Virus genome (UHGV): UHGV-0355038
Source of the DNA: a virus
DNA length: 12,487 nucleotides
Direction: 5' to 3' (one strand)
Below, piece by piece: positions 1 to 12,487 of the stretch (the first letter of the stretch is position 1; the number at the start of each line of letters is the position of its first letter). The position numbers and the translations under genes were made by a program. Below the pieces are notes generated by a model. That model saw only the letters and a program-made list of their open reading frames with translations, was not told the origin of the DNA and did no database searches.

Positions 1-106
1 CATAGCCAAAGGTGCCTGTGTATTTTTTTGAGTTTCAATTATTGCATTTCTCACCAGCGGTGGTAGTGCATATATCGGATAAGGATTTTCTGGTGCAAGT
101 AAGCAC
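1..106 (-). CDS. small hypothetical protein, N-terminal part only (runs off window start); paralog of the 357..584 ORF
   Basis: Minus-strand translation from the ATG at 106..104 gives MCLLAPENPYPIYALPPLVRNAIIETQKNTQAPLAM..., open to the window edge. A GAGAGG Shine-Dalgarno-like motif lies about 5 nt upstream. It shares the pattern PYP.YA.P...NAIIETQ.N..A.LAM with the 75-aa ORF at 357..584. Not in the ORF track because it is partial. Confidence 0.35.
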
Positions 107-143
107 ATAAAAGCCTCTCTTTTCATTAATGGGTTAGTAAAGT

Positions 144-179
144 AGCAGCAACTCCCGCTATAATAGCGAAATAGCTGCT
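144..179. promoter_or_regulatory. palindromic operator-like site upstream of the first small-gene copy
   Basis: AGCAGC (144..149) and GCTGCT (174..179) flank a central palindrome CGCTATAATAGCG that contains a TATAAT -10-like hexamer. It is the counterpart of the better-preserved site at 620..656. Confidence 0.3.
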
Positions 180-356
180 GTTCAGACCTAATGTTCTGAG
201 AAATACAGAATATCTGTAGATCTGATGTTTAATAAACCGATAAGGTTAATTCAGTTCATACTGTGTTATTTACCACGAAATATCATTCATGTTTCTCATT
301 CTTAACACCTCCTAAAATTATTTCACTAACACCTTCCCCCCGGTCTTTTTCCTTTC

Positions 357-584
357 TCAGGAATCAGCCAGAACCATAGTGTAAATATTAACGGGCCCAC
401 GTAAATTTCCGGGGTTGCACACGTCAATCTGATTCTGACAGGCAATTGACATCGCTGTTAATAATGATGTTGTAGTCATAGCCAGAGATGCTTTTTCATT
501 GTGTTGAGTTTCAATTATTGCATTTCCAGTCATTGATGGTTGCGCATATACTGGATACGGAGTATCCGGTTTGATGTAAGACAT
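357..584 (-). CDS. small hypothetical protein (75 aa), tandem paralog of the partial ORF at 1..106
   Basis: ATG start with an AAGGA Shine-Dalgarno motif about 8 nt upstream (minus-strand sense ...AAAAAAGGAAATATTTATG). The N-terminus MSYIKPDTPYPVYAQPSMTGNAIIETQHNEKASLAM aligns with the copy at 1..106. A palindromic operator-like site lies about 36 bp upstream. Confidence 0.45.
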   Translation of the reverse strand: MSYIKPDTPYPVYAQPSMTGNAIIETQHNEKASLAMTTTSLLTAMSIACQNQIDVCNPGNLRGPVNIYTMVLADS

Positions 585-619
585 AAATATTTCCTTTTTT
601 CGTAATAACTTTCGGTTAT

Positions 620-656
620 AGCAGCTATTTCCGCTACAATAGCAACAATAGCTGCT
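620..656. promoter_or_regulatory. perfect 10-bp inverted repeat operator-like site (AGCAGCTATT / AATAGCTGCT), 17-bp spacer
   Basis: AGCAGCTATT at 620..629 and AATAGCTGCT at 647..656 are exact reverse complements. The spacer TCCGCTACAATAGCAAC holds a TACAAT -10-like hexamer. The site sits between the small ORF start (584) and the AlpA-like gene end (690). Confidence 0.4.
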
Positions 657-689
657 ATACAGACTGGATATACTGAAAATACAGACAGT

Positions 690-917
690 TCATCTGGTCT
701 GTATCCAGCAGAGAAGGTCACTTAACAACCATCCGCAAGATTTCTTTCCGATAGACTTACGTGGTGGAAATGTTCCCTCCCGTTCAAGTTTCCACGCTTG
801 TGTACGAGAAATTGACGTGATCTCATATCGTTCCTTTTCACGTACCAGTCTGTCGCATTCAATCCCATAAGCTTTCAAAATGACCAGACGCTGTTCATCT
901 GTTAATGGAAGCCACAT
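690..917 (-). CDS. AlpA-family (phage Vis/AlpA-like) helix-turn-helix transcriptional regulator
   Basis: The track ORF 690..938 begins with a TTG codon. An internal ATG at 917..915 is preceded by a perfect AGGAGG Shine-Dalgarno motif at 5-nt spacing, so I place the start there (75 aa, MWLPLTDEQ...). The C-terminal segment ITSISRTQAWKLEREGTFPPRKSIGKKSCGWLLSDLLCWIQ matches, from memory, the AlpA pattern (S.STiyR...G.FP..+.+G.+s.gW...ei..Wi). Confidence 0.6.
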   Translation of the reverse strand: MWLPLTDEQRLVILKAYGIECDRLVREKERYEITSISRTQAWKLEREGTFPPRKSIGKKSCGWLLSDLLCWIQTR

Positions 918-1608
918 ACTACCCTCCTGATATATCAATACTTTTTATTTCCGGCATGAGCATGAAATGACTAAGTTTCCCGGATAAACAATGAGTGAAA
1001 GTCACTATCATTCATCCAGCCAACACCTTACAAATAAAATGTAATACTATGATTTTTATAGGTCAAAATACTGAATTGAAATGTTAAAATGGCTTTTAAT
1101 AGAAAAAATAAAGACATATAGAACCAAATAAAAACAAGCCGCGACCAATAAAAACAAAAATTAATATTAAAAATCCATTATGACGATTTTTGTTGACTAA
1201 AATTAGGTTGGGATATATAAATAAATCCATGTGAAATTCAAACAAAGCATGGAGGAGTCGCAGGAAGGTGAAATATTTCCATCTAATTTGTGATAATCAT
1301 CACAAAAATAAGCTACAACAAGCGGAGGAAAAGACAATCTGTTGCTGAACAGACAGAAGCAGGCTACGAATGATCGGAAAATGAAGCAAATACGCTTATA
1401 CAGAAGACGCAGGGGTAACTGACGGAGACAATCACAATCAGGAGAAAATGATCGTAAATAATGTATAAAATCTCAGGATATAAACAAATGTACACAAGCT
1501 ATCCACGTAATCTGCGGCTGGCTCAGGATTAACGTTTCATTTCAGTGGACGACATCGATTCTGTCTGACAGTGGGCCAATATGTGGCAAGCAGAAAACTT
1601 CTGACATC

Positions 1609-3240
1609 ATGGTAACTCGGACAATGCAACAAAAGTATGATCGTGTTTTATCTGGCGAATCCCACCCATTCCCTGGCATATACGAGGCGGTTTCCGAACA
1701 ACTCCTTTTGCTCATCTTTAAGGCTCGTCAGCTATATCAGAATCCAGAATATCGCCCCTGGTTTGAAGAACAGCACAGAGTTCTCTCTGCATTACGTGCT
1801 AATACAGAGCTCTTGAGAATATTTAGAGAACAAAGAAACGCGGAAGAACCAGAGCTTATTATTAAAGAATCTACATTACCCCTACTCACTAATTCTAATC
1901 TTACAGATGCGCTTAATATTATGTGCCATTTATACAATGGTTTTGATGAAGGAAATATCAGTCTGAAAACCTGGGGGGCGATGCAAGAGGTACAGACAAC
2001 ATCAACCTTTATCAGCCCGGGACCGAGAACCTGGAAAACACCTGAACTGGCAAAGTTTGTAGGAGATGATTTATTTAATATTCTGACTGAATGTAAAGCC
2101 TGGAGTTCACCAATTCCAGCAGAAACCCGACAGGGCTATTGCCATCAGGATCTGTCTGTTGCACACTCCTGCACCTCAGAGTTACTGGCACACCTGAATC
2201 AATACCATGAAATTGATGAATCAGCAATACTTGCCAGAGTTATTGGTATGACGGTTAACGGATTCTACAAGAAAAATAATACAGACCTCCCAGAATGGCT
2301 ATCCCCCTTTAAAGAGGAACATAAAATATTCAGAGATTGTCTGGAGCAAAAGACCGAGGATGTAATCAGACTGAAAGAACAACTGTTGAAAACAGGACGT
2401 TCAGAATTCGTGAATAATTTGTGTCGGGTCGCCAACTGGTATGAAATTAAGTCAATATACGATGAATATGTCCGTCTTTATGCCAATGAAATCATTGGTT
2501 GGTTCAACAAAACCATGGAATATTTTAAACCAACAGATTTTATCCGATATACATGGAAATTCGCAACAGTTACTCCAGATAAAGAGACAGAAACCAAGCA
2601 TACAACTGCATGGGAAAAGGATTATTGCCAGATAACTATACAACGTGATGAACTTCTGAGATTGATTCACACGAATACCCTTCAGGATGCAGTAATTTAT
2701 CTTTGCCATTGCCTGCAGAAGAAATACAAGAAATCATCCCAAAATGAGATAGAGTTTCCAGGAATAAAACCTCCGGCATCAGAGAGTGAAATTAATATAA
2801 CAGATAATTTTGAATTTTATTCTCTCCTGGAGCTCAGTAAAGATAATGAGAGGCGGCTGGAAACATTTCAAAAATGGTATGAAAAAAATAAAGTTTTGTT
2901 AGAAAGTCATAAACAAAAACGAACAGAGAAGATTGACGTTGCCGTACGACTTGTAGGGCTGAAAGCCTATGATCTGCATGAAGGGATTCCGGATAGTCCA
3001 AAACGAAAAGTTAAAGATGGCATAAATGAAGACATCAAAGCCGATACCAGTTTACGCCTGCCAAAGACAAATATAAGTGATACGTCGCTAAACCGTTATC
3101 GCCGCACTGTTAAGGAGATTATCAATAACGAAATCGACGCATTCCTGTTGGAACAGAAGAAAAAAAATAAAAGATTTCCCTACAGTGAAGATAGAGATGT
3201 GATTCGACCTTTATGGGGAAAATGCCTGACCGGGCAGTAG
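1609..3240 (+). CDS. hypothetical protein, 543 aa, no family recognised
   Basis: Long uninterrupted ORF; antisense ORFs inside it are short. A terminator-like hairpin follows the stop. No Walker A, HExxH or other motif I can name with confidence. The start is ambiguous between ATG 1609 and ATG 1624 (no strong Shine-Dalgarno for either). Confidence 0.65.
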   Translation: MVTRTMQQKYDRVLSGESHPFPGIYEAVSEQLLLLIFKARQLYQNPEYRPWFEEQHRVLSALRANTELLRIFREQRNAEEPELIIKESTLPLLTNSNLTDALNIMCHLYNGFDEGNISLKTWGAMQEVQTTSTFISPGPRTWKTPELAKFVGDDLFNILTECKAWSSPIPAETRQGYCHQDLSVAHSCTSELLAHLNQYHEIDESAILARVIGMTVNGFYKKNNTDLPEWLSPFKEEHKIFRDCLEQKTEDVIRLKEQLLKTGRSEFVNNLCRVANWYEIKSIYDEYVRLYANEIIGWFNKTMEYFKPTDFIRYTWKFATVTPDKETETKHTTAWEKDYCQITIQRDELLRLIHTNTLQDAVIYLCHCLQKKYKKSSQNEIEFPGIKPPASESEINITDNFEFYSLLELSKDNERRLETFQKWYEKNKVLLESHKQKRTEKIDVAVRLVGLKAYDLHEGIPDSPKRKVKDGINEDIKADTSLRLPKTNISDTSLNRYRRTVKEIINNEIDAFLLEQKKKNKRFPYSEDRDVIRPLWGKCLTGQ

Positions 3241-3248
3241 ATCACTGA

Positions 3249-3280
3249 GGGGATAACAGCCCGGTTATCCCCTGTTTGTT
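3249..3280 (+). terminator. intrinsic terminator-like hairpin between convergent genes
   Basis: GGGGATAAC (3249..3257), loop AGCCCG, GTTATCCCC (3264..3272): a perfect 9-bp stem. It is followed by TGTTTGTT and starts 9 nt after the stop of the 1609..3240 ORF. Confidence 0.5.
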
Positions 3281-3326
3281 CTGCTTCAGGTTGCCAGAGC
3301 TCCAGGAACACGAGGCAATCGGCAAA

Positions 3327-3923
3327 TTATGCGGCTTTTCCATTAACAGATTCGGCCACAAGAACAACACCGTGTTTGTTTCGATCAGGATGTTCACTCC
3401 AGATTTCTGATTCAGGAATGCTTTCCCCATCATAGCAGATCCGATCACCATCAAACGGATAATACCGTGCGGAATCTGTAGCTAAGATAAACACCTTAAG
3501 ATTCGTTGAACGACGCGCTATATGCTGCCAGAGGGCTTTACCTCCTTCATATTGCTCGTTATCACTTAATAGTATAACGCCTGCTTTTGTGGCTATTGTT
3601 TCATAAACAAACGTAGCAAGGCTAACATCACGTACAGCACCATCGACAACAATCCCTTCAATCTGAGCAACGTCCTGTTCTTCCCAGAATTTCCGGACAA
3701 ACACCCCTTCAAGTCGGGGACGACGCTGAAGCTCCAGAGTGGCAACAACCTTATGGCGAATATCACCATCAATAACAGAAGGTGCAGCTTCGATTACCGC
3801 AGCGAACGGAGTCTTTGGATCCCAGATGATCTGGTAAAGCACACCCTGAATAGTTACTCCATCCAGTATCGAAAAACGACGAGCTACAGTAGCAGGGGAG
3901 TAAGACATTGGAATGACAGCCAT
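3327..3923 (-). CDS. hypothetical protein, 198 aa, no family recognised
   Basis: ATG-initiated ORF on the minus strand, convergent with 1609..3240. The composition looks like a real globular protein (e.g. ...IATKAGVILLSDNEQYEGGKALWQHIARRS...). I could not assign a fold by eye. Confidence 0.6.
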   Translation of the reverse strand: MAVIPMSYSPATVARRFSILDGVTIQGVLYQIIWDPKTPFAAVIEAAPSVIDGDIRHKVVATLELQRRPRLEGVFVRKFWEEQDVAQIEGIVVDGAVRDVSLATFVYETIATKAGVILLSDNEQYEGGKALWQHIARRSTNLKVFILATDSARYYPFDGDRICYDGESIPESEIWSEHPDRNKHGVVLVAESVNGKAA

Positions 3924-4233
3924 TTTATGGCCTAAAATTTGAAAACATCAGTATCAATACTGACCTCATCAGTCTGAGCATATATTGATAAAGTTTTTAT
4001 GTTTACACTCAATAAATACCTTACCAAACAACTAATAGCGATGTCTACATTGCCATTCGACATGCTTACAATTTTTGTCAACAAGAAAGTGAATTTATAT
4101 CAACGGTAAGAAGTAAACACGAGGACACCAAAACCAAATGTACACACTTTTGTGCTTTGTGTCCCCTGTGTGTACCCAAATGACAAACTGCAAGAAAATC
4201 TAGGCACACACTTATCTAACTTATTGATTTAAA

Positions 4234-4279
4234 TGGTGCCGATAATAGGAGTCGAACCTACGACCTTCGCATTACGAAT
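4234..4279 (-). repeat. 46-nt 3' fragment of a tRNA gene (most likely tRNA-Thr CGU, thrW-like): integration-site (att) repeat
   Basis: Minus-strand sense reads ATTCGTAATGCGAAGGTCGTAGGTTCGACTCCTATTATCGGCACCA: anticodon loop with CGT, variable loop, T-arm GTAGG-TTCGACT-CCTAT, acceptor 3' strand TATCGGC, discriminator A and CCA. The sequence 5' of it (GGATTCTTATA) does not continue a D-arm or acceptor 5' strand, so this is a partial copy and not a gene. Confidence 0.65.
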
Positions 4280-5026
4280 TATAAGAATCCGCTTCTAATT
4301 CAAAGTATTACCCCATCAACACTGTGCTCACACGTCCCACCACATCAAAACATGTAAAGCCTTGCAAGCCATTGTGAGGCCTTATGTGTCTCAGTTTTGT
4401 CCCACCTTGTATTATGACTTGCATAGCCAATGAAGATAAACGTGACGACAAACAGCGCAGCAGTCTTCTTTTCTTTCACACTTTCCCCAATCAGCATACA
4501 TACTTTCTACCATAACTGTAGTGAATGTCTGTTATGAGCGAGCAAAAGAGATTCAATTACCGGGGAATTACTCCGACATAAGCTCTCCCAGAAACACCGG
4601 AACAGCGATTCGCATATTCTCTTCTATACTTTCAGTCTGACCGGCTGGAGATTTCATAGCAAGAAAATGGATGAGCCAAGACCTATGCGGGAAAGAGGCT
4701 GAGGAAATAATTGCCGATAGCACTGTGCCCGACGAAAAGTTAATCTGGCACGCAATGACGCGCGTCCTTGGGGCATCAGGAATCAGAGAGCCAACTTAAC
4801 AACCCATTATATATTATTTAACCGGACTGTTACATGTACAAAGTTCAATGATTAGTGATTCTGTGACGCCACATACAACCTAAGCCCCTGATATAAAACC
4901 AGTCTATGCAACACCTAAAAATCATATATGATAGGGTGATAAGTCAACGCGCAGTATAAAAATTAAGCTAAAAAATGCTTTCAGCATAGTGAATCTATTT
5001 CACACTACATAATTAAGGATGAAAAA

Positions 5027-5872
5027 ATGACTGCACCAGTAATTAGTTTTATCAATATGAAAGGTGGGGTTGGTAAAACAACTTTATGCGTTGGGATTGC
5101 TGAGTTTTTAGCCAACCATATGGGGCGCAAGGTTCTAGTTATCGATATTGATCCTCAATTTAATGCCACTCAGTCCTTAATGGGGCATTATGATCGAGTA
5201 GAAGAATATATGACTGCCCTTCGCCCTAATAATCAAACCATTCGAAAGATTTTTGAGCTTCCAAATTCATTAATGGAAGATGAAAAGAAAGTGACACCAG
5301 AACAGGTCATTACTAAAGTTTCAGACAATCTTGATATTATCTTAGGTGATATAAACATTATCTTTGATACTAACCAAGAGGGTATTAGAATAAAAATGTT
5401 GCGTAAATTCATCACCGAAAATGACTTAAAAGAAAGTTACGACTATATCTTTATCGATAGCCCCCCAACAATCTCATTATTTACAGATACCGCACTCCTT
5501 GCTTCTGATTATTATCTTACTCCGGTTAAAATTGATCACTACTCGGTGCTTGGAGCAAGCAGTTTAAATAGCGTTATAAGAAATATGCGCACACATCATG
5601 AGAAAGAAATCAAGCAAGTCGGTTACATTTATACAAACACTGATGCTGAAATGACCAATAAAACAAGGGAAATTAAAGAACAATTCGAAAACCATACTCA
5701 ATTTACAAATTTTTATTTCTTTGAAAATCAATTAACCTACGTGCGTGATTTAATGGTAGGTTATCAAGGAAATATTCCTTCTTGTTATTCAAAGTCACGC
5801 CAAGATATAGAAAAGATCTGTAACGAATTTATTAACAGAGTGGCTCACTTGGAAGGTAACACAAATGAATAA
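5027..5872 (+). CDS. ParA/MinD/Soj-family P-loop ATPase (deviant Walker A)
   Basis: AAGGA Shine-Dalgarno motif 7 nt upstream of the ATG. N-terminal INMKGGVGKTT (deviant Walker A KGGxxGK[ST]), VIDIDPQ (typical ParA DxDPQ motif) and a hydrophobic Walker B-like IFIDSPP. 281 aa, no N-terminal HTH extension. Confidence 0.75.
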   Translation: MTAPVISFINMKGGVGKTTLCVGIAEFLANHMGRKVLVIDIDPQFNATQSLMGHYDRVEEYMTALRPNNQTIRKIFELPNSLMEDEKKVTPEQVITKVSDNLDIILGDINIIFDTNQEGIRIKMLRKFITENDLKESYDYIFIDSPPTISLFTDTALLASDYYLTPVKIDHYSVLGASSLNSVIRNMRTHHEKEIKQVGYIYTNTDAEMTNKTREIKEQFENHTQFTNFYFFENQLTYVRDLMVGYQGNIPSCYSKSRQDIEKICNEFINRVAHLEGNTNE

Positions 5873-6263
5873 ACAATTAATTAAAGCGCTCAATAAAGCT
5901 AATAATATGCCCATGACCAAAGAAAACTTCTTAGGCTTGGTAATTATGTTGATTCTTTCAAAAGAGGTTTTTAGATCAAATTTTGATGTTAGTAAATTTA
6001 TTAACAAAACCTTCAAAATATCTTTTTTGAATTATGCTGTACGGTCAAGAACTTTGATGTGCGCTAAAATTTGCAGACATATTAATGAATTAAGTGAGAA
6101 TGACATAAAGATGGCTTATACGCATTTCTTAAACAACATTAACACATTAGACATTATTTTTAATGATGCAAATAAAACAAGCCAAAAACCCACATCTAAA
6201 AGCAAGCATGCTATAAGGAATTTAAATATTTGGATTAATGCAAATAAAAAGGAAGAAGAATAA
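5865..6263 (+). CDS. hypothetical protein, 132 aa, Lys/Asn-rich, no family recognised
   Basis: ATG overlaps the upstream stop by 8 nt (ATGAATAA). A GGAAGG Shine-Dalgarno motif lies about 8 nt upstream. Very AT-rich codon usage shared with its neighbours. Confidence 0.6.
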   Translation: MNKQLIKALNKANNMPMTKENFLGLVIMLILSKEVFRSNFDVSKFINKTFKISFLNYAVRSRTLMCAKICRHINELSENDIKMAYTHFLNNINTLDIIFNDANKTSQKPTSKSKHAIRNLNIWINANKKEEE

Positions 6264-6928
6264 TGCTCACGCAGGATCCCTTCAACATTGGAAGAGATGT
6301 AAATTATTTTAGAGCGGAGGTGCAAAAGCACCTCAGAACCACTGATGAAATAAACAAATCAGTATCAATATTTAGGCAAATAAGTCTTTGTAATACAATT
6401 TTAAGTCACAATCCTAATCTAAATCACTCTTCTTATATAAAAGGTTTTATATATGATACCTTAAACTCCTTAATTGCCATTATAAAAAAAAGAGAACGGT
6501 ATCTCCAACTGAACTTCCGCTCAATGGTGGAGCATGTGGCCAGAATAAGCCTCAATAAGAACTACAATGGTGGGGATTTTGACCAAACTGTACGTCGTAG
6601 AGACTTTGACTTCTTAAAAGCCCAACAAGTCGATGAAGGCTGGTCTTATTTACATAATGTCTATATCAACGCCTGTTATTATGTTCACTCCTCCCCCCAA
6701 GCGAACCTAAATGTTACATCAACATTTATATCACTTATGGAGGGAGATTGTAATTCAACACAGCATAAAATGGTGAAAAAACTTCATGAGGTAGTATCGG
6801 CGCTGATGAGAATCATTATAAAGTATTATCATCAGCATATCTCAAACATTTTCTTTAGAAACAAAAAGGATTTAGAGAAAATAATGGGAAAAAGCCTTTA
6901 TTCATATTATACCAGCTTAGACAATTAA
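6263..6928 (+). CDS. hypothetical protein, 221 aa, no family recognised (speculative HEPN-like R-x4-H motifs)
   Basis: Start overlaps the upstream stop by 1 nt (TAATG). An AAGGAAG Shine-Dalgarno motif is upstream. It contains R-x4-6-H strings (RSMVEH, RIIIKYYH) that could be coincidental. Confidence 0.6.
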   Translation: MLTQDPFNIGRDVNYFRAEVQKHLRTTDEINKSVSIFRQISLCNTILSHNPNLNHSSYIKGFIYDTLNSLIAIIKKRERYLQLNFRSMVEHVARISLNKNYNGGDFDQTVRRRDFDFLKAQQVDEGWSYLHNVYINACYYVHSSPQANLNVTSTFISLMEGDCNSTQHKMVKKLHEVVSALMRIIIKYYHQHISNIFFRNKKDLEKIMGKSLYSYYTSLDN

Positions 6929-6965
6929 TTCTCTCATATTCATTGCGTAGAGCATAAATATCTAT

Positions 6966-7461
6966 CTAACCACCTAAAATGCCAGAAAATCTAGTTGTAT
7001 ACCGGTGCGAAAATATCTCGCGTTTCATCTGCCACTGCTGCTGAATGCCCTGCCCAGCGAAACAGAGTGTTTCCTTCCCGTCTTTTGCATTGAGGTGCTC
7101 CAGCACGCTCATTAACTTTTCGCTCCCAGGACCCAGCGCGTTATCGTCGAATAGGTTAGGGCATGCTCTGACTGAAGAAGTCCCCCAGCATTACCCCGGC
7201 TTTCTGATATCGGTGTCCGTCTTTCCATATTGCATCCAGACTCCCCGTTGCTACTGCAATGATATCCCGACTGTCCTGTGTCGGGATGAGCAGCTTCACC
7301 GACGCGCTGTTACAGTAGTACGACTCGTTCAACGCAAAGGGTATCGTGTAAAACCGATGATGACACTGCCGGCAATCAGCACTGACGTCAGCAAACGTGA
7401 GAAAGAACAGATAAGCCGAACGATTTAGGAAATGTTTGAAGAGACTGATATGTGGATGGTT
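6966..7461 (-). pseudogene. umuC: umuC-like Y-family translesion polymerase gene, 3' remnant, frameshifted and 5'-truncated
   Basis: Minus-strand translation gives ...FYTIPFALNESYYCNSASVKLLIPTQDSRDIIAVATGSLDAIWKDGHRYQKAGVMLGDFFSQ. After a frameshift near 7160..7175 it gives NLFDDNALGPGSEKLMSVLEHLNAKDGKETLCFAGQGIQQQWQMKREIFSHRYTTRFSGILGG-stop. This matches my recollection of the UmuC C-terminus (...HRYQKAGVMLGDFFSQ...NLFDDNA...GQGIQQQWQMKR...PRYTTR...). No intact ORF remains, and the upstream extent (possibly to about 7790) is uncertain. Confidence 0.6.
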
Positions 7462-7858
7462 TCAGTTTAAACGCCTTGAACCGTCATATTACCTAAGTAC
7501 AATCCGCTGTGACTGGCAATCATTCAATACTTGCACTATCAAAAGTGCATCAGCCAACCGCAGCACGTCTTGCATACGACCTGTCTGCGGTTTCAATCAC
7601 CTCTCACCACCAGTCCCATCAATAATAATTAAACAGCGCCTAAACAAAATAAATAACAACAAGTCAACAACCTCGACAGGATGCCGATGGGATGATGAAG
7701 AGATAAGAAAGAATAACTAGTAAAGCCCTAAAACGTCAGCGTTCAGACGCGTTTTTTACTTAACCGGTAACAAATACGTTGTATCATAGCAACATAAAAT
7801 GATTGTTCTAAATCAGATTAACTCCTCACTTTTGTACAATGTCGCTTACAGGTATACC

Positions 7859-9748
7859 ATGAAATCCGAGACGCTAACTGTCCAACAACTTTTTCAAGAC
7901 CGCCGACAATACTGTGTTCCATTCTATCAACGTGCCTATGTATGGACTCAGCGAAACCAATGGTCAGCTCTACTGGAGGATATCCTAGAGAAAGCACAAT
8001 CCCGGCTCTCGGGTACAAAACCAACTCCCCATTTCCTTGGTGCAGTGGTACTGGAACCTCAACCAAAAAAAGGATTATTCGGTGTAGATTCCATACATAT
8101 TATTGATGGTCAGCAACGATTGACCACTCTTCAATATGTTCTGGCATCCATCCGATTAGCATTACGTGCGACAGATCTTTCCAACTTAGAGCCTCTCATT
8201 TCGTCTTGCCTGAAAAACTCAAACGAAGACACAATGCGAAATAAAGAAGTAGAGCGCTTCAAACTGTGGCCAACTTTTCGGGATCAAACTCATTTTATTC
8301 AAAGTTTTAATGTTGAAAATATTGACGATATCCGGAATGTATTCTCTGATAGTTTCACGCAGCATGGTACGTTGCGTAAGCATTTTAATCACCCGCCATC
8401 ACTAGAAGCATTATGTTTTTTTACTGAAGCCTTTATAAAGTGGATTAAAATAGAAAATCACTCACCACGAGAAAATGCTGTAGCATTAATTGAGGCTGTC
8501 TTGACGGATCTGAAACTAGTAAGCATATTTCTCGAGGCTGAAGATGACGCTCAAATAATTTTTGAAACATTAAATGGCAGAGGTGCGGAACTTCATGCCA
8601 CAGATCTTATTCGCAATTATATTTTTATGTGCGCTGAACATGAAAATATTAATGCTGTTGAATTATATGAGAATGAGTGGAAGATCTTTGAAGATACGTA
8701 CTGGTCAGAAAGACAACGTCGTGGTCGTATTAATAAACCACGCATGGAGTGGCTAGTGCATGCAACATTGCAATCAGAAAGGCAACGTGAAATCGATCTG
8801 TCTCGTCTTTACAATGAGTATCGTGATTATGTAAGTAAGGACTTGCCTTCACAACGAGCAGATCTGCAAGTAAAGCGCCTCAAACAATATGCATCACAAT
8901 ATAAAGAATTGGTTGGTGGTTTTGGCACAACCCCCATCTCACACTTTGGACATCGCATCGCAGCCTATGATGTGACGACACTTTATCCGCTTGCTTTGTT
9001 CATTTCGATAGCTAACATCGCCGATGATGAGAAAGCAGCCATGTATAATGATCTTGTCTCCTACGTAGTACGAAGAGCCGTATGTGGCCTGACGCCAAAG
9101 AATTACAACAATGTATTTATGAATGTATTGCGGCACTTGTCTAAAACAGAAATTTCCAGTGTTGAGTTACGTAATATCCTCAATAGCTTAAATGGCGAAG
9201 CCTCACGTTGGCCTGGGGACTCAGAATTTCTCAACGCTTGCATCAATGCTCCACTTTATCCTGGCAGGCTCGACGCACCGAAAATGCGCTCAATGTTAAC
9301 GGAACTTGAAAGAGAACTTTGTCGCCAAGTGAAGACAGAGAAGCCTGATGTTCCAAATCTTTCTAACCTCGATATCGATCATCTTATGCCTCAAAGTTGG
9401 TATTCCTGTTGGCCTCTCGAAAATGGTCATATAGTGACAAATTCAGATGCTACGGTATTGAACCAAATTGTTCTGTCTGGAACCGATCTTACCCCAGAAC
9501 AGCTACTGGTAAGGAAACGGCAACAAGCGATAGCTACGTTGGGAAATCTAACTTTGCTTAACCTTAGCGTAAACCGTTCTGTTCAGAATGCTGTATTTCT
9601 GAAAAAACGTGATGCTCTCATCGTCCACACCAATCTACGACTGAACATTCCACTTATAGTTAAGGATAAATGGGATGAGGATGAAATCCTGGAGCGGGGT
9701 AAAAAGTTGGGGGAAATTGCATTGAAAGTATGGCCAAAACACGATTAA
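7859..9748 (+). CDS. GmrSD-family putative type IV (modification-dependent) restriction endonuclease: N-terminal DUF262 (ParB-like NTPase) plus C-terminal DUF1524 (His-Me finger nuclease)
   Basis: N-terminal YCVPFYQRAYVW and IIDGQQRLTTLQ (the DGQQR signature of DUF262). C-terminal LSNLDIDHLMPQSW (DUF1524-like D-H..P.S nuclease motif). The track ORF starts at ATG 7799; I prefer the in-frame ATG at 7859 (AGG 9 nt upstream; the conserved block then starts near residue 18), but 7799 is possible. Confidence 0.75.
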   Translation: MKSETLTVQQLFQDRRQYCVPFYQRAYVWTQRNQWSALLEDILEKAQSRLSGTKPTPHFLGAVVLEPQPKKGLFGVDSIHIIDGQQRLTTLQYVLASIRLALRATDLSNLEPLISSCLKNSNEDTMRNKEVERFKLWPTFRDQTHFIQSFNVENIDDIRNVFSDSFTQHGTLRKHFNHPPSLEALCFFTEAFIKWIKIENHSPRENAVALIEAVLTDLKLVSIFLEAEDDAQIIFETLNGRGAELHATDLIRNYIFMCAEHENINAVELYENEWKIFEDTYWSERQRRGRINKPRMEWLVHATLQSERQREIDLSRLYNEYRDYVSKDLPSQRADLQVKRLKQYASQYKELVGGFGTTPISHFGHRIAAYDVTTLYPLALFISIANIADDEKAAMYNDLVSYVVRRAVCGLTPKNYNNVFMNVLRHLSKTEISSVELRNILNSLNGEASRWPGDSEFLNACINAPLYPGRLDAPKMRSMLTELERELCRQVKTEKPDVPNLSNLDIDHLMPQSWYSCWPLENGHIVTNSDATVLNQIVLSGTDLTPEQLLVRKRQQAIATLGNLTLLNLSVNRSVQNAVFLKKRDALIVHTNLRLNIPLIVKDKWDEDEILERGKKLGEIALKVWPKHD

Positions 9749-9770
9749 TGCAATTAATAAAATGATTATA

Positions 9771-9794
9771 GCGGCCTTACATTAGTAAGGCCGC
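9771..9794. terminator. perfect 10-bp stem hairpin downstream of the GmrSD-like gene
   Basis: GCGGCCTTAC-ATTA-GTAAGGCCGC. The T-run is weak on the plus strand; on the minus strand it is followed by TATAATCATTTTATT. It may terminate either or both convergent transcripts. Confidence 0.4.
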
Positions 9795-9839
9795 TACTCA
9801 CTATTAAATCCTTTAATTTGCAACAAGAACAGCAGTGTC

Positions 9840-9971
9840 AGCCCTAGGTTTCGGACTTTGTACCGCTTATCTTGTCTTCAAAATCAGCTCGCATCCTGCA
9901 CAGTTCAGCGCATTACGTTGTAGATCTGTGTTCTGGTCATTTGTTGATACGCGAACATAGCCAATAAGCAT
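9840..9971 (-). pseudogene. pin: Gin/Pin/Cin/Hin-family serine DNA invertase, N-terminal stub only
   Basis: Minus-strand ATG at 9971..9969 translates MLIGYVRVSTNDQNTDLQRNALNCAGCELI, the near-invariant invertase N-terminus containing the catalytic-serine region (VRVST). A 1-nt loss in a T-run then shifts the frame (LKTR-stop); the +1 frame still reads FEDKISGTKSE before a TAG. Homology ends around 9830 where the GmrSD cassette begins. Not in the ORF track (too short). Confidence 0.7.
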
Positions 9972-10000
9972 GATAGCTCCTCCTGACAAAAACAGGAACG

Positions 10001-10474
10001 ATGCCATTTGCGCGCTATTTCTGCATTTTCATAAACGTTCAATTGGGAGAAGCGGCAAAACGGGATGTCGGAACCGGTAATAATCAACTCCCGGACATGT
10101 CCGCATTTGGTATGTCGCGAAACGGACAAACTGCCTGGGATATTCTCCCAAATGGTATGATTCGACAGGTTGGTACTGTGACACTGACGCCTGTTGGTAA
10201 TTTCAACGCAATTACTCTTGGTGGAGTGCTGTACTACACCCATTACTACAGGGTTAATTTCCCCAGACAATTCCCAAATGCACAAATAGCAACGCTGGCA
10301 ACACTAGCGAGTTACAGCTTTTCGACCCAGTCATCAATGGCTGGGAAATCACTGGCAACGCATCGCGATACTGATTCTGGCACTGACGTATCAAGAACGC
10401 GATTCACTGTGTCGTATACGACACCCAATCTCGGCGAAATTCCGACTTTGCATTTTGAAGCAATAGGATACTAA
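10001..10474 (+). CDS. alternative tail-fibre C-terminal (receptor-binding tip) cassette, S'-like, inverted relative to the expressed fibre gene
   Basis: 157-aa ORF; the frame is open from 9977. Its beginning ...INVQLGEAAKRDVGTGNN... parallels ...NALQLGTAATRDVGADNA... inside the minus-strand fibre gene, and both end in A(I/L)GY. The cassette has no obvious promoter or Shine-Dalgarno motif of its own. Confidence 0.55.
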   Translation: MPFARYFCIFINVQLGEAAKRDVGTGNNQLPDMSAFGMSRNGQTAWDILPNGMIRQVGTVTLTPVGNFNAITLGGVLYYTHYYRVNFPRQFPNAQIATLATLASYSFSTQSSMAGKSLATHRDTDSGTDVSRTRFTVSYTTPNLGEIPTLHFEAIGY

Positions 10475-10476
10475 AT

Positions 10477-10710
10477 ATGGAGAATATGTATTTCAGCCCA
10501 ACGACCGTTGGTTTTTATGTTTCTGAACAAGAGCGACCTGATGATGCGGTTGAAGTCTCGCCAGAGGTGGAGGCATTTTTGAGGGAGTGTGTTATCTGGG
10601 GAGCGGATACATTTAACGTAGAGCGAGATGCAGCAACGGTGACATATCCAACAGAACTGCTTGAATATGTCACCACCTACAACGCCCCCGTTAAATATCC
10701 TGCGGATTGA
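10477..10710 (+). CDS. small ORF downstream of the S' cassette, U'-like (alternative tail fibre assembly chaperone), possibly truncated
   Basis: ATG 2 nt after the S' stop (TAA-at-ATG), the same spacing as the fibre/Tfa junction on the other strand (TAA-ga-ATG). It is 77 aa, and its 3' end overlaps the 3' end of the minus-strand Tfa gene by 20 bp. The assignment is by position; I see no family motif. Confidence 0.4.
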   Translation: MENMYFSPTTVGFYVSEQERPDDAVEVSPEVEAFLRECVIWGADTFNVERDAATVTYPTELLEYVTTYNAPVKYPAD

Positions 10711-11101
10711 CAGGCCATACGGGTTTTGCTGTATCAACGCGCATCAGCAAGACCCGGTATTTTTTCCATTCAGATAACGCGGCGGTTTCTTCTGCCGTCG
10801 CGATTTCCGCATCAAAAGCATCCTGTCTCCAGGCTATTTCCTTATCAGCCATAGAACGCAATACCGTTCTTTTCTGTTCAGCCTGAATAATCTGTTGTTC
10901 AGCGGAGAGTGGCGGGATATCAATCCACGCAGGATTACCATTTTTATCAGCCCCCAGCGTTTTGCCTTGTGGCGCTACGCCTGTGTAAATTGCCATTGTT
11001 TCATCATCAACATCAACGCCATTTTCAGGCCATGAACCGGCGCTGATATATACCTCTTTTAGTGCTTTCGGATAGAAAGAGCCTTTATAAAATTTATTCA
11101 T
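10691..11101 (-). CDS. tfa: tail fibre assembly protein (lambda Tfa / Mu U family)
   Basis: C-terminal ...[27 protein letters not shown]... matches, from memory, the conserved lambda Tfa C-terminus (...[25 protein letters not shown]..WP). I place the start at the ATG at 11101, which is 2 nt after the fibre stop with GGGG upstream; the track ORF from 11131 would overlap the fibre gene. Confidence 0.75.
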   Translation of the reverse strand: [136 protein letters not shown]

Positions 11102-11103
11102 TC

Positions 11104-12487
11104 TTAATACCCCAGCGCGATAAAACAACAATCTTCGGTGCCCTCTCCGGATGGCGACCAGTTCTGAATACTGATATGCGTTCTGCTGGCAATACGCACA
11201 TTCATCGCGGCATTGTAGCCAGATGTTCCACGGTTTCCGGTCGCAAATAAGCCTGCATAGGGAAAAGCAAATGGTAAGGCATATCCAGCATCAGCTCCCT
11301 TTTGTGTTGCCACCATTCCCCACTGCAACATAAGTTTCACCGGGTTTCCTGTCGTCGCAATGCATGGAATGTAGATGTAGCCATTCCCTGACATCATTGA
11401 CCTGAAGCTGTCTAAACCCAGTAACTTCGAGGCATTATCTGCTCCAACATCTCGTGTTGCGGCGGTCCCTAACTGGAGCGCATTTCGGAAGGCTGATACA
11501 TCAGAAATATCAGCTCCATTAGCCGATTTCTGCATAGCTCCGGAGGCTTTATTTATCGTTTCGCCCAAACCAAGGTATGCGAGAAGACCAGCTACATCCT
11601 TTCCACTCAAATTAGTCAGCGTATTGTCCAGCGGTTGTTTGCCCGCCAGTGCGCTCTGTACTTCGCTTTTGCTGTAGGCATCCAGATCTTTAGGCGTAAG
11701 CGTAATATCCTTCGTGCCGTCAAACGGAACGCCGTTGATATTCCGTGCAGTCTGTAGTTTTGTGGCAGTTGCAGCATTACCAGTGGTGTTCTGATTACCC
11801 GTAGTGTTTACACCTGGAAGGTTAATATTTGCAGAACCGTCGAAAACAACTCCACCGATAGATCTTGCCGTCTGCAATTTCGTGGCTGTACTTGCATTAC
11901 CATTCAATGAACCAGTTAATCCACCTGTAACAGACAACGGACCTGAAACTGTTCCTCCGGTTGTTGGCAGTGCTCCAATATCTAACGGCGTCGGTTTCTG
12001 ATGTGTGCTATACATCGTATAAACAACACCATAGGTAACGCTGGAAGGCTTACTCGCTGAATATGTTGGCGAGGTATAAACAGAAACTGACGCATTTGCA
12101 GTACAATCCCAATGGATATTTACACTCGTCGCATAATTGCCAATCTCAACGTAAATATCATATGTATCGCCGGATGTGTTGATCCAGGCGAAATTCGTTA
12201 ATCCGACGGCTGTACGCTTCCACAAAGCCCCGGTAATTCCTTTGGGGTTTCCATTGCCTGCTCGTAGAACCAGTTCTGAAATGCCTGCCTGATGTGGGGA
12301 ACCGACGTTGTAACCAGCGCCACCAATCAATGCGATGTAAACGATGGAACTCGCCTGTGGCATGGTTACCGTTGCTAATTTGAACCAACCAGCACCACCG
12401 CTGAATGACATTGTTGTTGAGTTAAGCGTACCAATATCTTTCGGCGTCAGTGTTATATCCGCTGAAAGCGCCTTACCATTCACCTTA
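11104..12487 (-). CDS. stf: side tail fibre protein, C-terminal about 460 aa (5' end beyond the window)
   Basis: Repeated fibre motifs (DITLTPKD twice; ATKLQTARSIGGVVFDGSANI / ATKLQTARNINGVPFDGTKDI), Gly/Ser/Thr-rich composition, and an immediately downstream Tfa. The track methionine at 12483 is probably internal. Confidence 0.8.
   Translation of the reverse strand, partial: KVNGKALSADITLTPKDIGTLNSTTMSFSGGAGWFKLATVTMPQASSIVYIALIGGAGYNVGSPHQAGISELVLRAGNGNPKGITGALWKRTAVGLTNFAWINTSGDTYDIYVEIGNYATSVNIHWDCTANASVSVYTSPTYSASKPSSVTYGVVYTMYSTHQKPTPLDIGALPTTGGTVSGPLSVTGGLTGSLNGNASTATKLQTARSIGGVVFDGSANINLPGVNTTGNQNTTGNAATATKLQTARNINGVPFDGTKDITLTPKDLDAYSKSEVQSALAGKQPLDNTLTNLSGKDVAGLLAYLGLGETINKASGAMQKSANGADISDVSAFRNALQLGTAATRDVGADNASKLLGLDSFRSMMSGNGYIYIPCIATTGNPVKLMLQWGMVATQKGADAGYALPFAFPYAGLFATGNRGTSGYNAAMNVRIASRTHISIQNWSPSGEGTEDCCFIALGY

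Follow-up and report, generated by a model that had tools for sequence, protein, structure and literature searches.

This locus raises the question of what is left of a DNA-polymerase operon at positions 6966-7790, and whether anything there could still work. The window, i.e., the whole stretch of DNA that we analysed, comprises 12,487 nucleotides and is listed as UHGV virus genome UHGV-0355038. An earlier note, made from the letters alone, had read 6966-7790 as a frameshifted UmuC C-terminal region on the minus strand, left over from an operon for an error-prone polymerase on a prophage. Our analysis bears out the homology and corrects its extent. UmuC similarity stops at ~7342-7347, which leaves a fragment of 382 bp instead of 825 bp. 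The remaining part, 7344-7790, is not umuC; it consists of a dinI remnant at 7344-7472 (plus strand) that had been missed, followed by the flank of a pin-type invertase gene and by leader sequence of a GmrSD restriction gene.

The umuC remnant occupies 6966-7342 on the minus strand and was recognised by NCBIfam, Pfam, blastn and the RefSeq annotation pipeline PGAP. Translation of 6900-7850 yielded two minus-strand frames. Frame A extends from 7347 to 7159 (TIPFALNES...GDFFSQSMP, followed by a stop) and frame B from ~7166 to 6966 (PNLFDDNAL...GILGG); the latter reads PNLFDDNALGPGSEKLMSVLEHLNAKDGKETLCFAGQGIQQQWQMKREIFSHRYTTRFSGILGG and terminates at 6966, the native umuC stop TAG lying at 6966-6968. 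When joined, the two frames give 128 residues matching the NCBIfam profile PRK03609, ‘Pol V subunit UmuC’, with an E-value of 1.2e-59 over positions 294-419 of 422. The same residues match Pfam IMS_C (PF11799) in its last half only (positions 58-107 of 109; E 1.9e-6) and Pfam DUF4113 (PF13438) over positions 1-48 of 51 (E 6.6e-17). The remnant hence spans codons ~294-422 of the Pol V catalytic subunit, that is, the end of the little-finger IMS_C domain and DUF4113. The two frames part at 7158-7163 (minus strand), where gapped blastn against strain GE3 shows 4 + 1 nucleotides missing relative to intact umuC. This 5-nt loss hits the codons of the conserved AQLNLF motif: eight intact UmuC homologues read SQG(I/V)AQL(N/D)LFD(D/E), whereas the window reads SQSMP and a stop in one frame and PNLFDD in the other. 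As the frameshift falls within it, this QLNLF-type motif, which we take to be the beta-clamp-binding motif of UmuC, is not intact.

The catalytic N-terminal domain (palm, fingers and thumb) is absent from the window, in which full-length GE3 UmuC aligned by tblastn with its residues 285-419 only. The run-on over residues 285-293 crosses the end of DNA similarity at 7342 and was discarded as weak and not true homology. The earlier note had rightly pointed to the lack of a start codon and of a umuD partner: the remnant has no N-terminus, no start codon and no uninterrupted frame, and tblastn returned nothing N-terminal of residues ~285-294 and no UmuD match anywhere in the window. An exact LexA box (CTGT-N8-ACAG) was not found in the window either, and the six matches with one mismatch do not exceed the chance expectation; the lone one within 6966-7790 lies at 7050-7065, inside the umuC remnant and not at a promoter position. 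Because the catalytic domain, start codon, umuD and LexA box are absent and the frame is broken, the remnant is, as judged from its sequence, a member of the UmuC family by descent but not functionally. RefSeq PGAP labels it a pseudogene (‘DUF4113 domain-containing protein; frameshifted; missing N-terminus’).

The dinI remnant, at 7344-7472 on the plus strand, covers codons ~40-81 and was delimited by blastn, Pfam, translation against GE3 and PGAP. Aligned to GE3 DinI, it translates as RVKPMMTLPAISTDVSKREKEQISRTI, a stop, EMFEETDMWMVSV and a second stop. Pfam DinI (PF06183) matched with an E-value of 8.2e-6, only profile positions 26-63 of 63 being present, and tblastn with the intact GE3 DinI reached an E-value of 9e-20. 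A run-on of the tblastn alignment over dinI residues 30-39 was again weak and not counted as true homology, the DNA similarity starting at 7344. We also considered a frameshift in this remnant and rejected it, since codon-by-codon comparison with GE3 revealed an in-frame TAG at 7426-7428 (codon ~67) where GE3 has CAG; the native stop, TAA, stands at 7470-7472. The remnant lacks a start codon and falls short of a full-length DinI of ~80 aa, and a PGAP pseudogene call at 7342-7428 covers it. It can thus be regarded as a member of the DinI family by descent only. DinI proteins modulate the activity of RecA filaments (PMC6590174).

The setting of both remnants is a lambdoid prophage of E. coli. 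The window is E. coli chromosomal DNA that matches strain Ec-2977 end to end at 99.3%, and its part from 4217 to 12487 is common to more than 40 complete genomes at 100%. To the right of the window, these genomes carry a tail fibre gene, lom, J and lambda-type tail genes; the umuC/dinI relic belongs to the accessory arm on the far side of the tail-fibre genes.

An intact counterpart of this arm is found at tRNA-Pro in GE3 (NZ_CP012376.1) and strain 100181. There, the genes follow each other as SRAP (plus), umuC (minus), umuD (minus), dinI (plus), HipA-DUF3037, pinE (minus) and the tail-fibre genes, in the same order and orientation relative to pin and the tail-fibre genes as in the window. In contrast to the window, all genes are intact, the chromosomal site is another one, HipA/DUF3037 takes the place of GmrSD and a ParA block as cargo, and a canonical LexA box, CTGTATATAAATACAG, lies in the 77-bp spacer between umuD and dinI. 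Against the GE3 arm (locus L003), blastn aligned the window in three colinear pieces: 6993-7342 with the umuC 3' end (L003 6001-6355; 82% identity), 7344-7461 with dinI nucleotides 117-234 (L003 7854-7971; 87%), and 7460-7603 with the pin flank (L003 9672-9821; 76%). Alignment to an intact prophage-borne umuDC had been proposed as the way to define the deletion, and the GE3 arm served this purpose: the umuC and dinI pieces are 1 nt apart in the window and 1498 bp apart in GE3, placing a loss of ~1.5 kb across the presumed divergent SOS promoter, from umuC to dinI. The GE3-type sequence missing at the junction amounts to ~1498 bp (L003 6356-7853). The truncated 5' ends of the two genes meet head to head, one blastn segment ending at 7342 and the other beginning at 7344, and the single base between them, 7343, matches neither flank.

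Because the two pieces are 1 nt apart here and 1498 bp apart in GE3, one deletion between the divergent genes accounts for both truncations and for the head-to-head orientation. On these comparisons we consider it very probable that a single loss of ~1.5 kb took place and that the remnant is now a nonfunctional, decayed SOS module. Alternatively, the two genes might have been truncated independently, through successive deletions or through a mobile element that entered and was later imprecisely lost, and abut by chance. The region does rearrange repeatedly, as seen in the internal deletion of SRAP, the exchange of pin for a GmrSD cassette and the IS elements nearby in sister genomes, and the base at 7343 fits neither side; yet the junction contains no IS or foreign remnant, and two blocks 1 nt apart, oriented as a simple deletion of a GE3-type arrangement would leave them, are explained more parsimoniously by a single event. 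Independent truncations are thus improbable in our judgment. A closer intact progenitor than ~82% in DNA and 79% in protein was not present in E. coli genomes, species-representative genomes, phages or plasmids: complete E. coli genomes contain only three intact relatives (81-83%), the best relative among 185k species-representative genomes has 79% protein identity, and matches over umuC stay at or below 74% in plasmids and in phages. At this distance from any progenitor, the exact breakpoints, a microhomology or the choice between one and several events are not open to proof.

With the single deletion as the preferred reading, the history of the locus might be as follows. At the tail-fibre end of the ancestral prophage, there would have been an accessory module under SOS control, in which umuC and umuD read leftward and dinI rightward from a shared intergenic start region with a LexA box, the divergent promoters presumably sitting in the 77-bp spacer and a SRAP gene being convergent on umuC. 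The ~1.5 kb deletion would have removed umuC codons 1 to ~293 and with them the entire catalytic domain, the complete umuD gene, the LexA-box region of 77 bp and dinI codons 1-39. It would have left the 3' halves of umuC and dinI abutting at 7343, both without promoter and start codon. Later decay would have added the 5-nt loss and many private amino-acid changes to the umuC remnant and the TAG codon to the dinI remnant. By now, the relic would be without function and presumably without expression, a filler inherited with the prophage between two intact, later-acquired cargo modules, namely a ParA-type three-gene block and the GmrSD restriction gene.

Comparable modules occur elsewhere. Among 80 umuC loci, eight have dinI divergent and immediately upstream of umuD, in other Enterobacteriaceae species. 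In Citrobacter sedlakii (locus L008, 2744-4387), a dinI homologue lies divergently ~150 bp upstream of umuC, with no umuD between them by tblastn, and this locus may represent a different state of decay or rearrangement of the same module. Temperate siphophages (Escherichia phage PHB10, Salmonella phage vB_SosS_Oslo, Enterobacter phage CobraSix and Klebsiella phage ST846-OXA48phi9.2) have intact umuDC genes, with 71-78% protein identity to the repaired remnant. The free phages PHB10 and Oslo carry their umuD-umuC flanked by the tail-fibre genes and the integrase, and their annotation shows no divergent dinI next to the pair. Together with the J, lom and tail-fibre neighbours, an intact umuDC in the same relative place in GE3, 100181, PHB10 and Oslo, with tail fibre/pin on one side and the prophage end on the other, supports the idea of the earlier note that an error-prone polymerase operon on a prophage left this relic. 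In E. coli K-12, the umuDC and dinI loci are unlinked. The relic shares its protein families with the chromosomal umuDC (Pol V) and dinI of K-12, both of which are LexA-regulated (PMC6590174). The umuC of the window has ~75% protein identity to the umuC copies of three E. coli representative genomes (L026, L027 and L030); it is a horizontally acquired paralogue, now dead. Plasmid operons of the impCAB type likewise place a small DinI-like gene and homologues of umuD and umuC together on a mobile element, with all three genes co-directional. In the prophage module, by contrast, dinI is divergent from umuDC, and plasmid umuC matches to the remnant reach only about 72-74% DNA identity. Our literature search returned no paper on this specific umuC-dinI prophage module.

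A comparison of the umuC remnant with eight intact homologues covered 117 alignable codons. At sites where these homologues are invariant, the remnant carries 12 private substitutions, compared with 0-6 in the homologues themselves, and its dN/dS against GE3 is 0.15, as opposed to 0.05-0.06 among intact copies. This excess of private changes fits a long neutral decay. The deletion, the frameshift and the TAG are all found again in the copies of WCHEC005784, PCN061 and ML775, which differ by 0-3 SNPs, and the relic recurs at an identity of at least 99% in 52 of 5426 complete genomes. As the carriers share all three lesions at this identity, the lesions are older than the spread of the prophage arm. 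The identical structure in 52 independently sequenced complete genomes also refutes an assembly or sequencing artefact, be it a frameshift error or a chimeric join, to which we assign practically no weight. Both pseudogenes are already annotated by RefSeq in about 50 E. coli genomes. The relic is an ordinary pseudogene pair, and our contribution beyond the existing annotation is its refined anatomy.

The only long plus-strand ORF of the region, 7045-7428 (127 aa), had been set aside in the earlier note as antisense to umuC and not protein-like. This holds for its first ~100 codons, which are antisense umuC, and neither Pfam nor NCBIfam has a family for the ORF; its final 28 sense codons, however, are the real dinI frame, the antisense run continuing in frame into dinI codons 40-66. 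The ORF is held open by the 5-nt loss and was brought into phase with dinI by the deletion. Conservation of this ORF had been named as possible counter-evidence to the umuC reading, and it is not seen: in GE3, a stop breaks the antisense-umuC frame, and the 5-nt difference puts it out of phase. Hence, the ORF is a spurious chimera, a by-product of the lesions and not a conserved gene.

A different view would be that a small working gene persists here, either this 127-aa chimera or a 48-aa ORF comprising DUF4113 alone (7112-6966, minus strand), and modulates the host Pol V, the beta clamp or RecA. In every carrier examined, both reading frames are uninterrupted, and the 48-aa ORF starts at a Met conserved inside UmuC and spans the whole DUF4113. 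However, the carriers are at least 99% identical, so that open frames are uninformative on selection, and the plus-strand ORF matches no family and has a broken frame in GE3. Moreover, some of the private changes at invariant sites fall within DUF4113, the native promoter region is missing, and neither ORF has a promoter-like site facing it from nearby. We judge a working small gene to be very unlikely. It would be just as far-fetched that one of the two ORFs is expressed via read-through from the cargo genes and acts as a decoy that damps host Pol V/RecA during prophage carriage. With the reading as a decayed gene pair retained, 7045-7428 should not be called a gene in annotation, and the relic should be entered as two pseudogenes, not one. 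It further illustrates that lesions in pseudogenes suffice to create a long antisense ORF.

To the right of dinI, the segment 7460-7603 (minus strand) is the 3' flank of a pin-type invertase gene with its last ~3 codons, and its blastn match in GE3 spans the pinE stop at L003 9811. Other genomes annotate a ‘recombinase family protein’ under the match at 7514-7593, and we considered this segment as a recombinase coding fragment; it was rejected, as the match merely abuts the stop of the recombinase gene and represents 3' flank plus about 3 codons. The 5' end of pin, 42 codons and frameshifted, is found at 9971-9846 (minus strand), and the terminal ~3 codons at 7593-7603. In place of the central part of pin, there is 7604-9848, a cassette with a full-length GmrSD type IV methyl-directed restriction gene at 7859-9748, whose product scores 1436 bits against PADLOC mREase_IV and matches Pfam GmrSD_N/C. 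The region 7604-7858 (plus strand) is the leader or upstream region of this gene, with which it co-occurs: 7515-7800 recurs at 92-97% identity upstream of the DUF262 gene in other prophage contexts, and 7760-7787 resembles a promoter. A candidate terminator hairpin at 7731-7760 was dropped after a negative consensus scan and a fold z-score of -0.22. An Rfam scan of the whole window gave nothing in 6966-7858; at 10725-10901 (minus strand), inside the tail-fibre-assembly gene region, it gave a sub-threshold match to IS009 (37.5 bits versus a gathering score of 117; E 7.5e-6) that is probably not meaningful. As pin is gutted, the invertible tail-fibre segment should be locked. Sister genomes carry this segment in opposite orientations (L001 versus L002).

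To the left, a remnant of a SRAP gene (SOS response-associated peptidase, YedK-type) lies at 4623-4799 (plus strand), most of the gene being deleted. Positions 4659-4772 correspond to residues 172-209 of GE3 SRAP (E 8e-12) and 4623-4655 to the stretch just upstream of the SRAP start; in PCN061 and ML775, PGAP lists the remnant as a pseudogene. SRAP and umuC once converged, and the ends of their remnants are now separated by an AT-rich (29-34% GC) block of three genes with overlapping stops and starts (5027-6928, plus strand), which occupies a cargo hotspot of the prophage next to a restriction gene. It encodes a ParA/AAA_31 ATPase of 281 aa and two proteins of 132 aa and 221 aa, which have no Pfam family and only negligible PADLOC similarity. 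The block may represent a defence module or a partition-like one that has yet to be characterised.

The earlier note had also seen a GC contrast to AT-rich sides and had taken the umuC region for an older layer of the mosaic. Indeed, GC is 0.46-0.53 across 6900-7350 versus 0.29-0.39 on both flanks. The remark on layering finds support because every member of the syntenic backbone, i.e., SRAP, umuC, umuD, dinI and pin, is damaged or gone, whereas the AT-rich ParA and GmrSD inserts are intact; the excess of private substitutions points the same way. Of little importance alone, the relic provides a clean worked example of how a prophage accessory arm decays, with its SOS module and tail-fibre invertase eroded and newly acquired defence-type cargo intact.

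A sharp edge lies at ~4217-4228: more than 40 genomes are 100% alike over 4217/4228-12487 and unlike leftward of it, and in WCHEC005784 a tyrosine integrase occupies the site to its left. That the shared block ends here and an integrase is found there suggests that recombination or integration produced a breakpoint at this end of the prophage. The block 1-4216 is shared with only one other complete E. coli genome and holds two ORFs, 1609-3240 (plus strand, 543 aa) and 3327-3923 (minus strand, 198 aa), which are hypothetical in RefSeq and without Pfam or PADLOC match. They are adjoined by an AlpA-type regulator gene at 690-938 (minus strand) and, in the one other genome that shares the block, by CP4-57/P4-like genes (YfjI, DUF3987).
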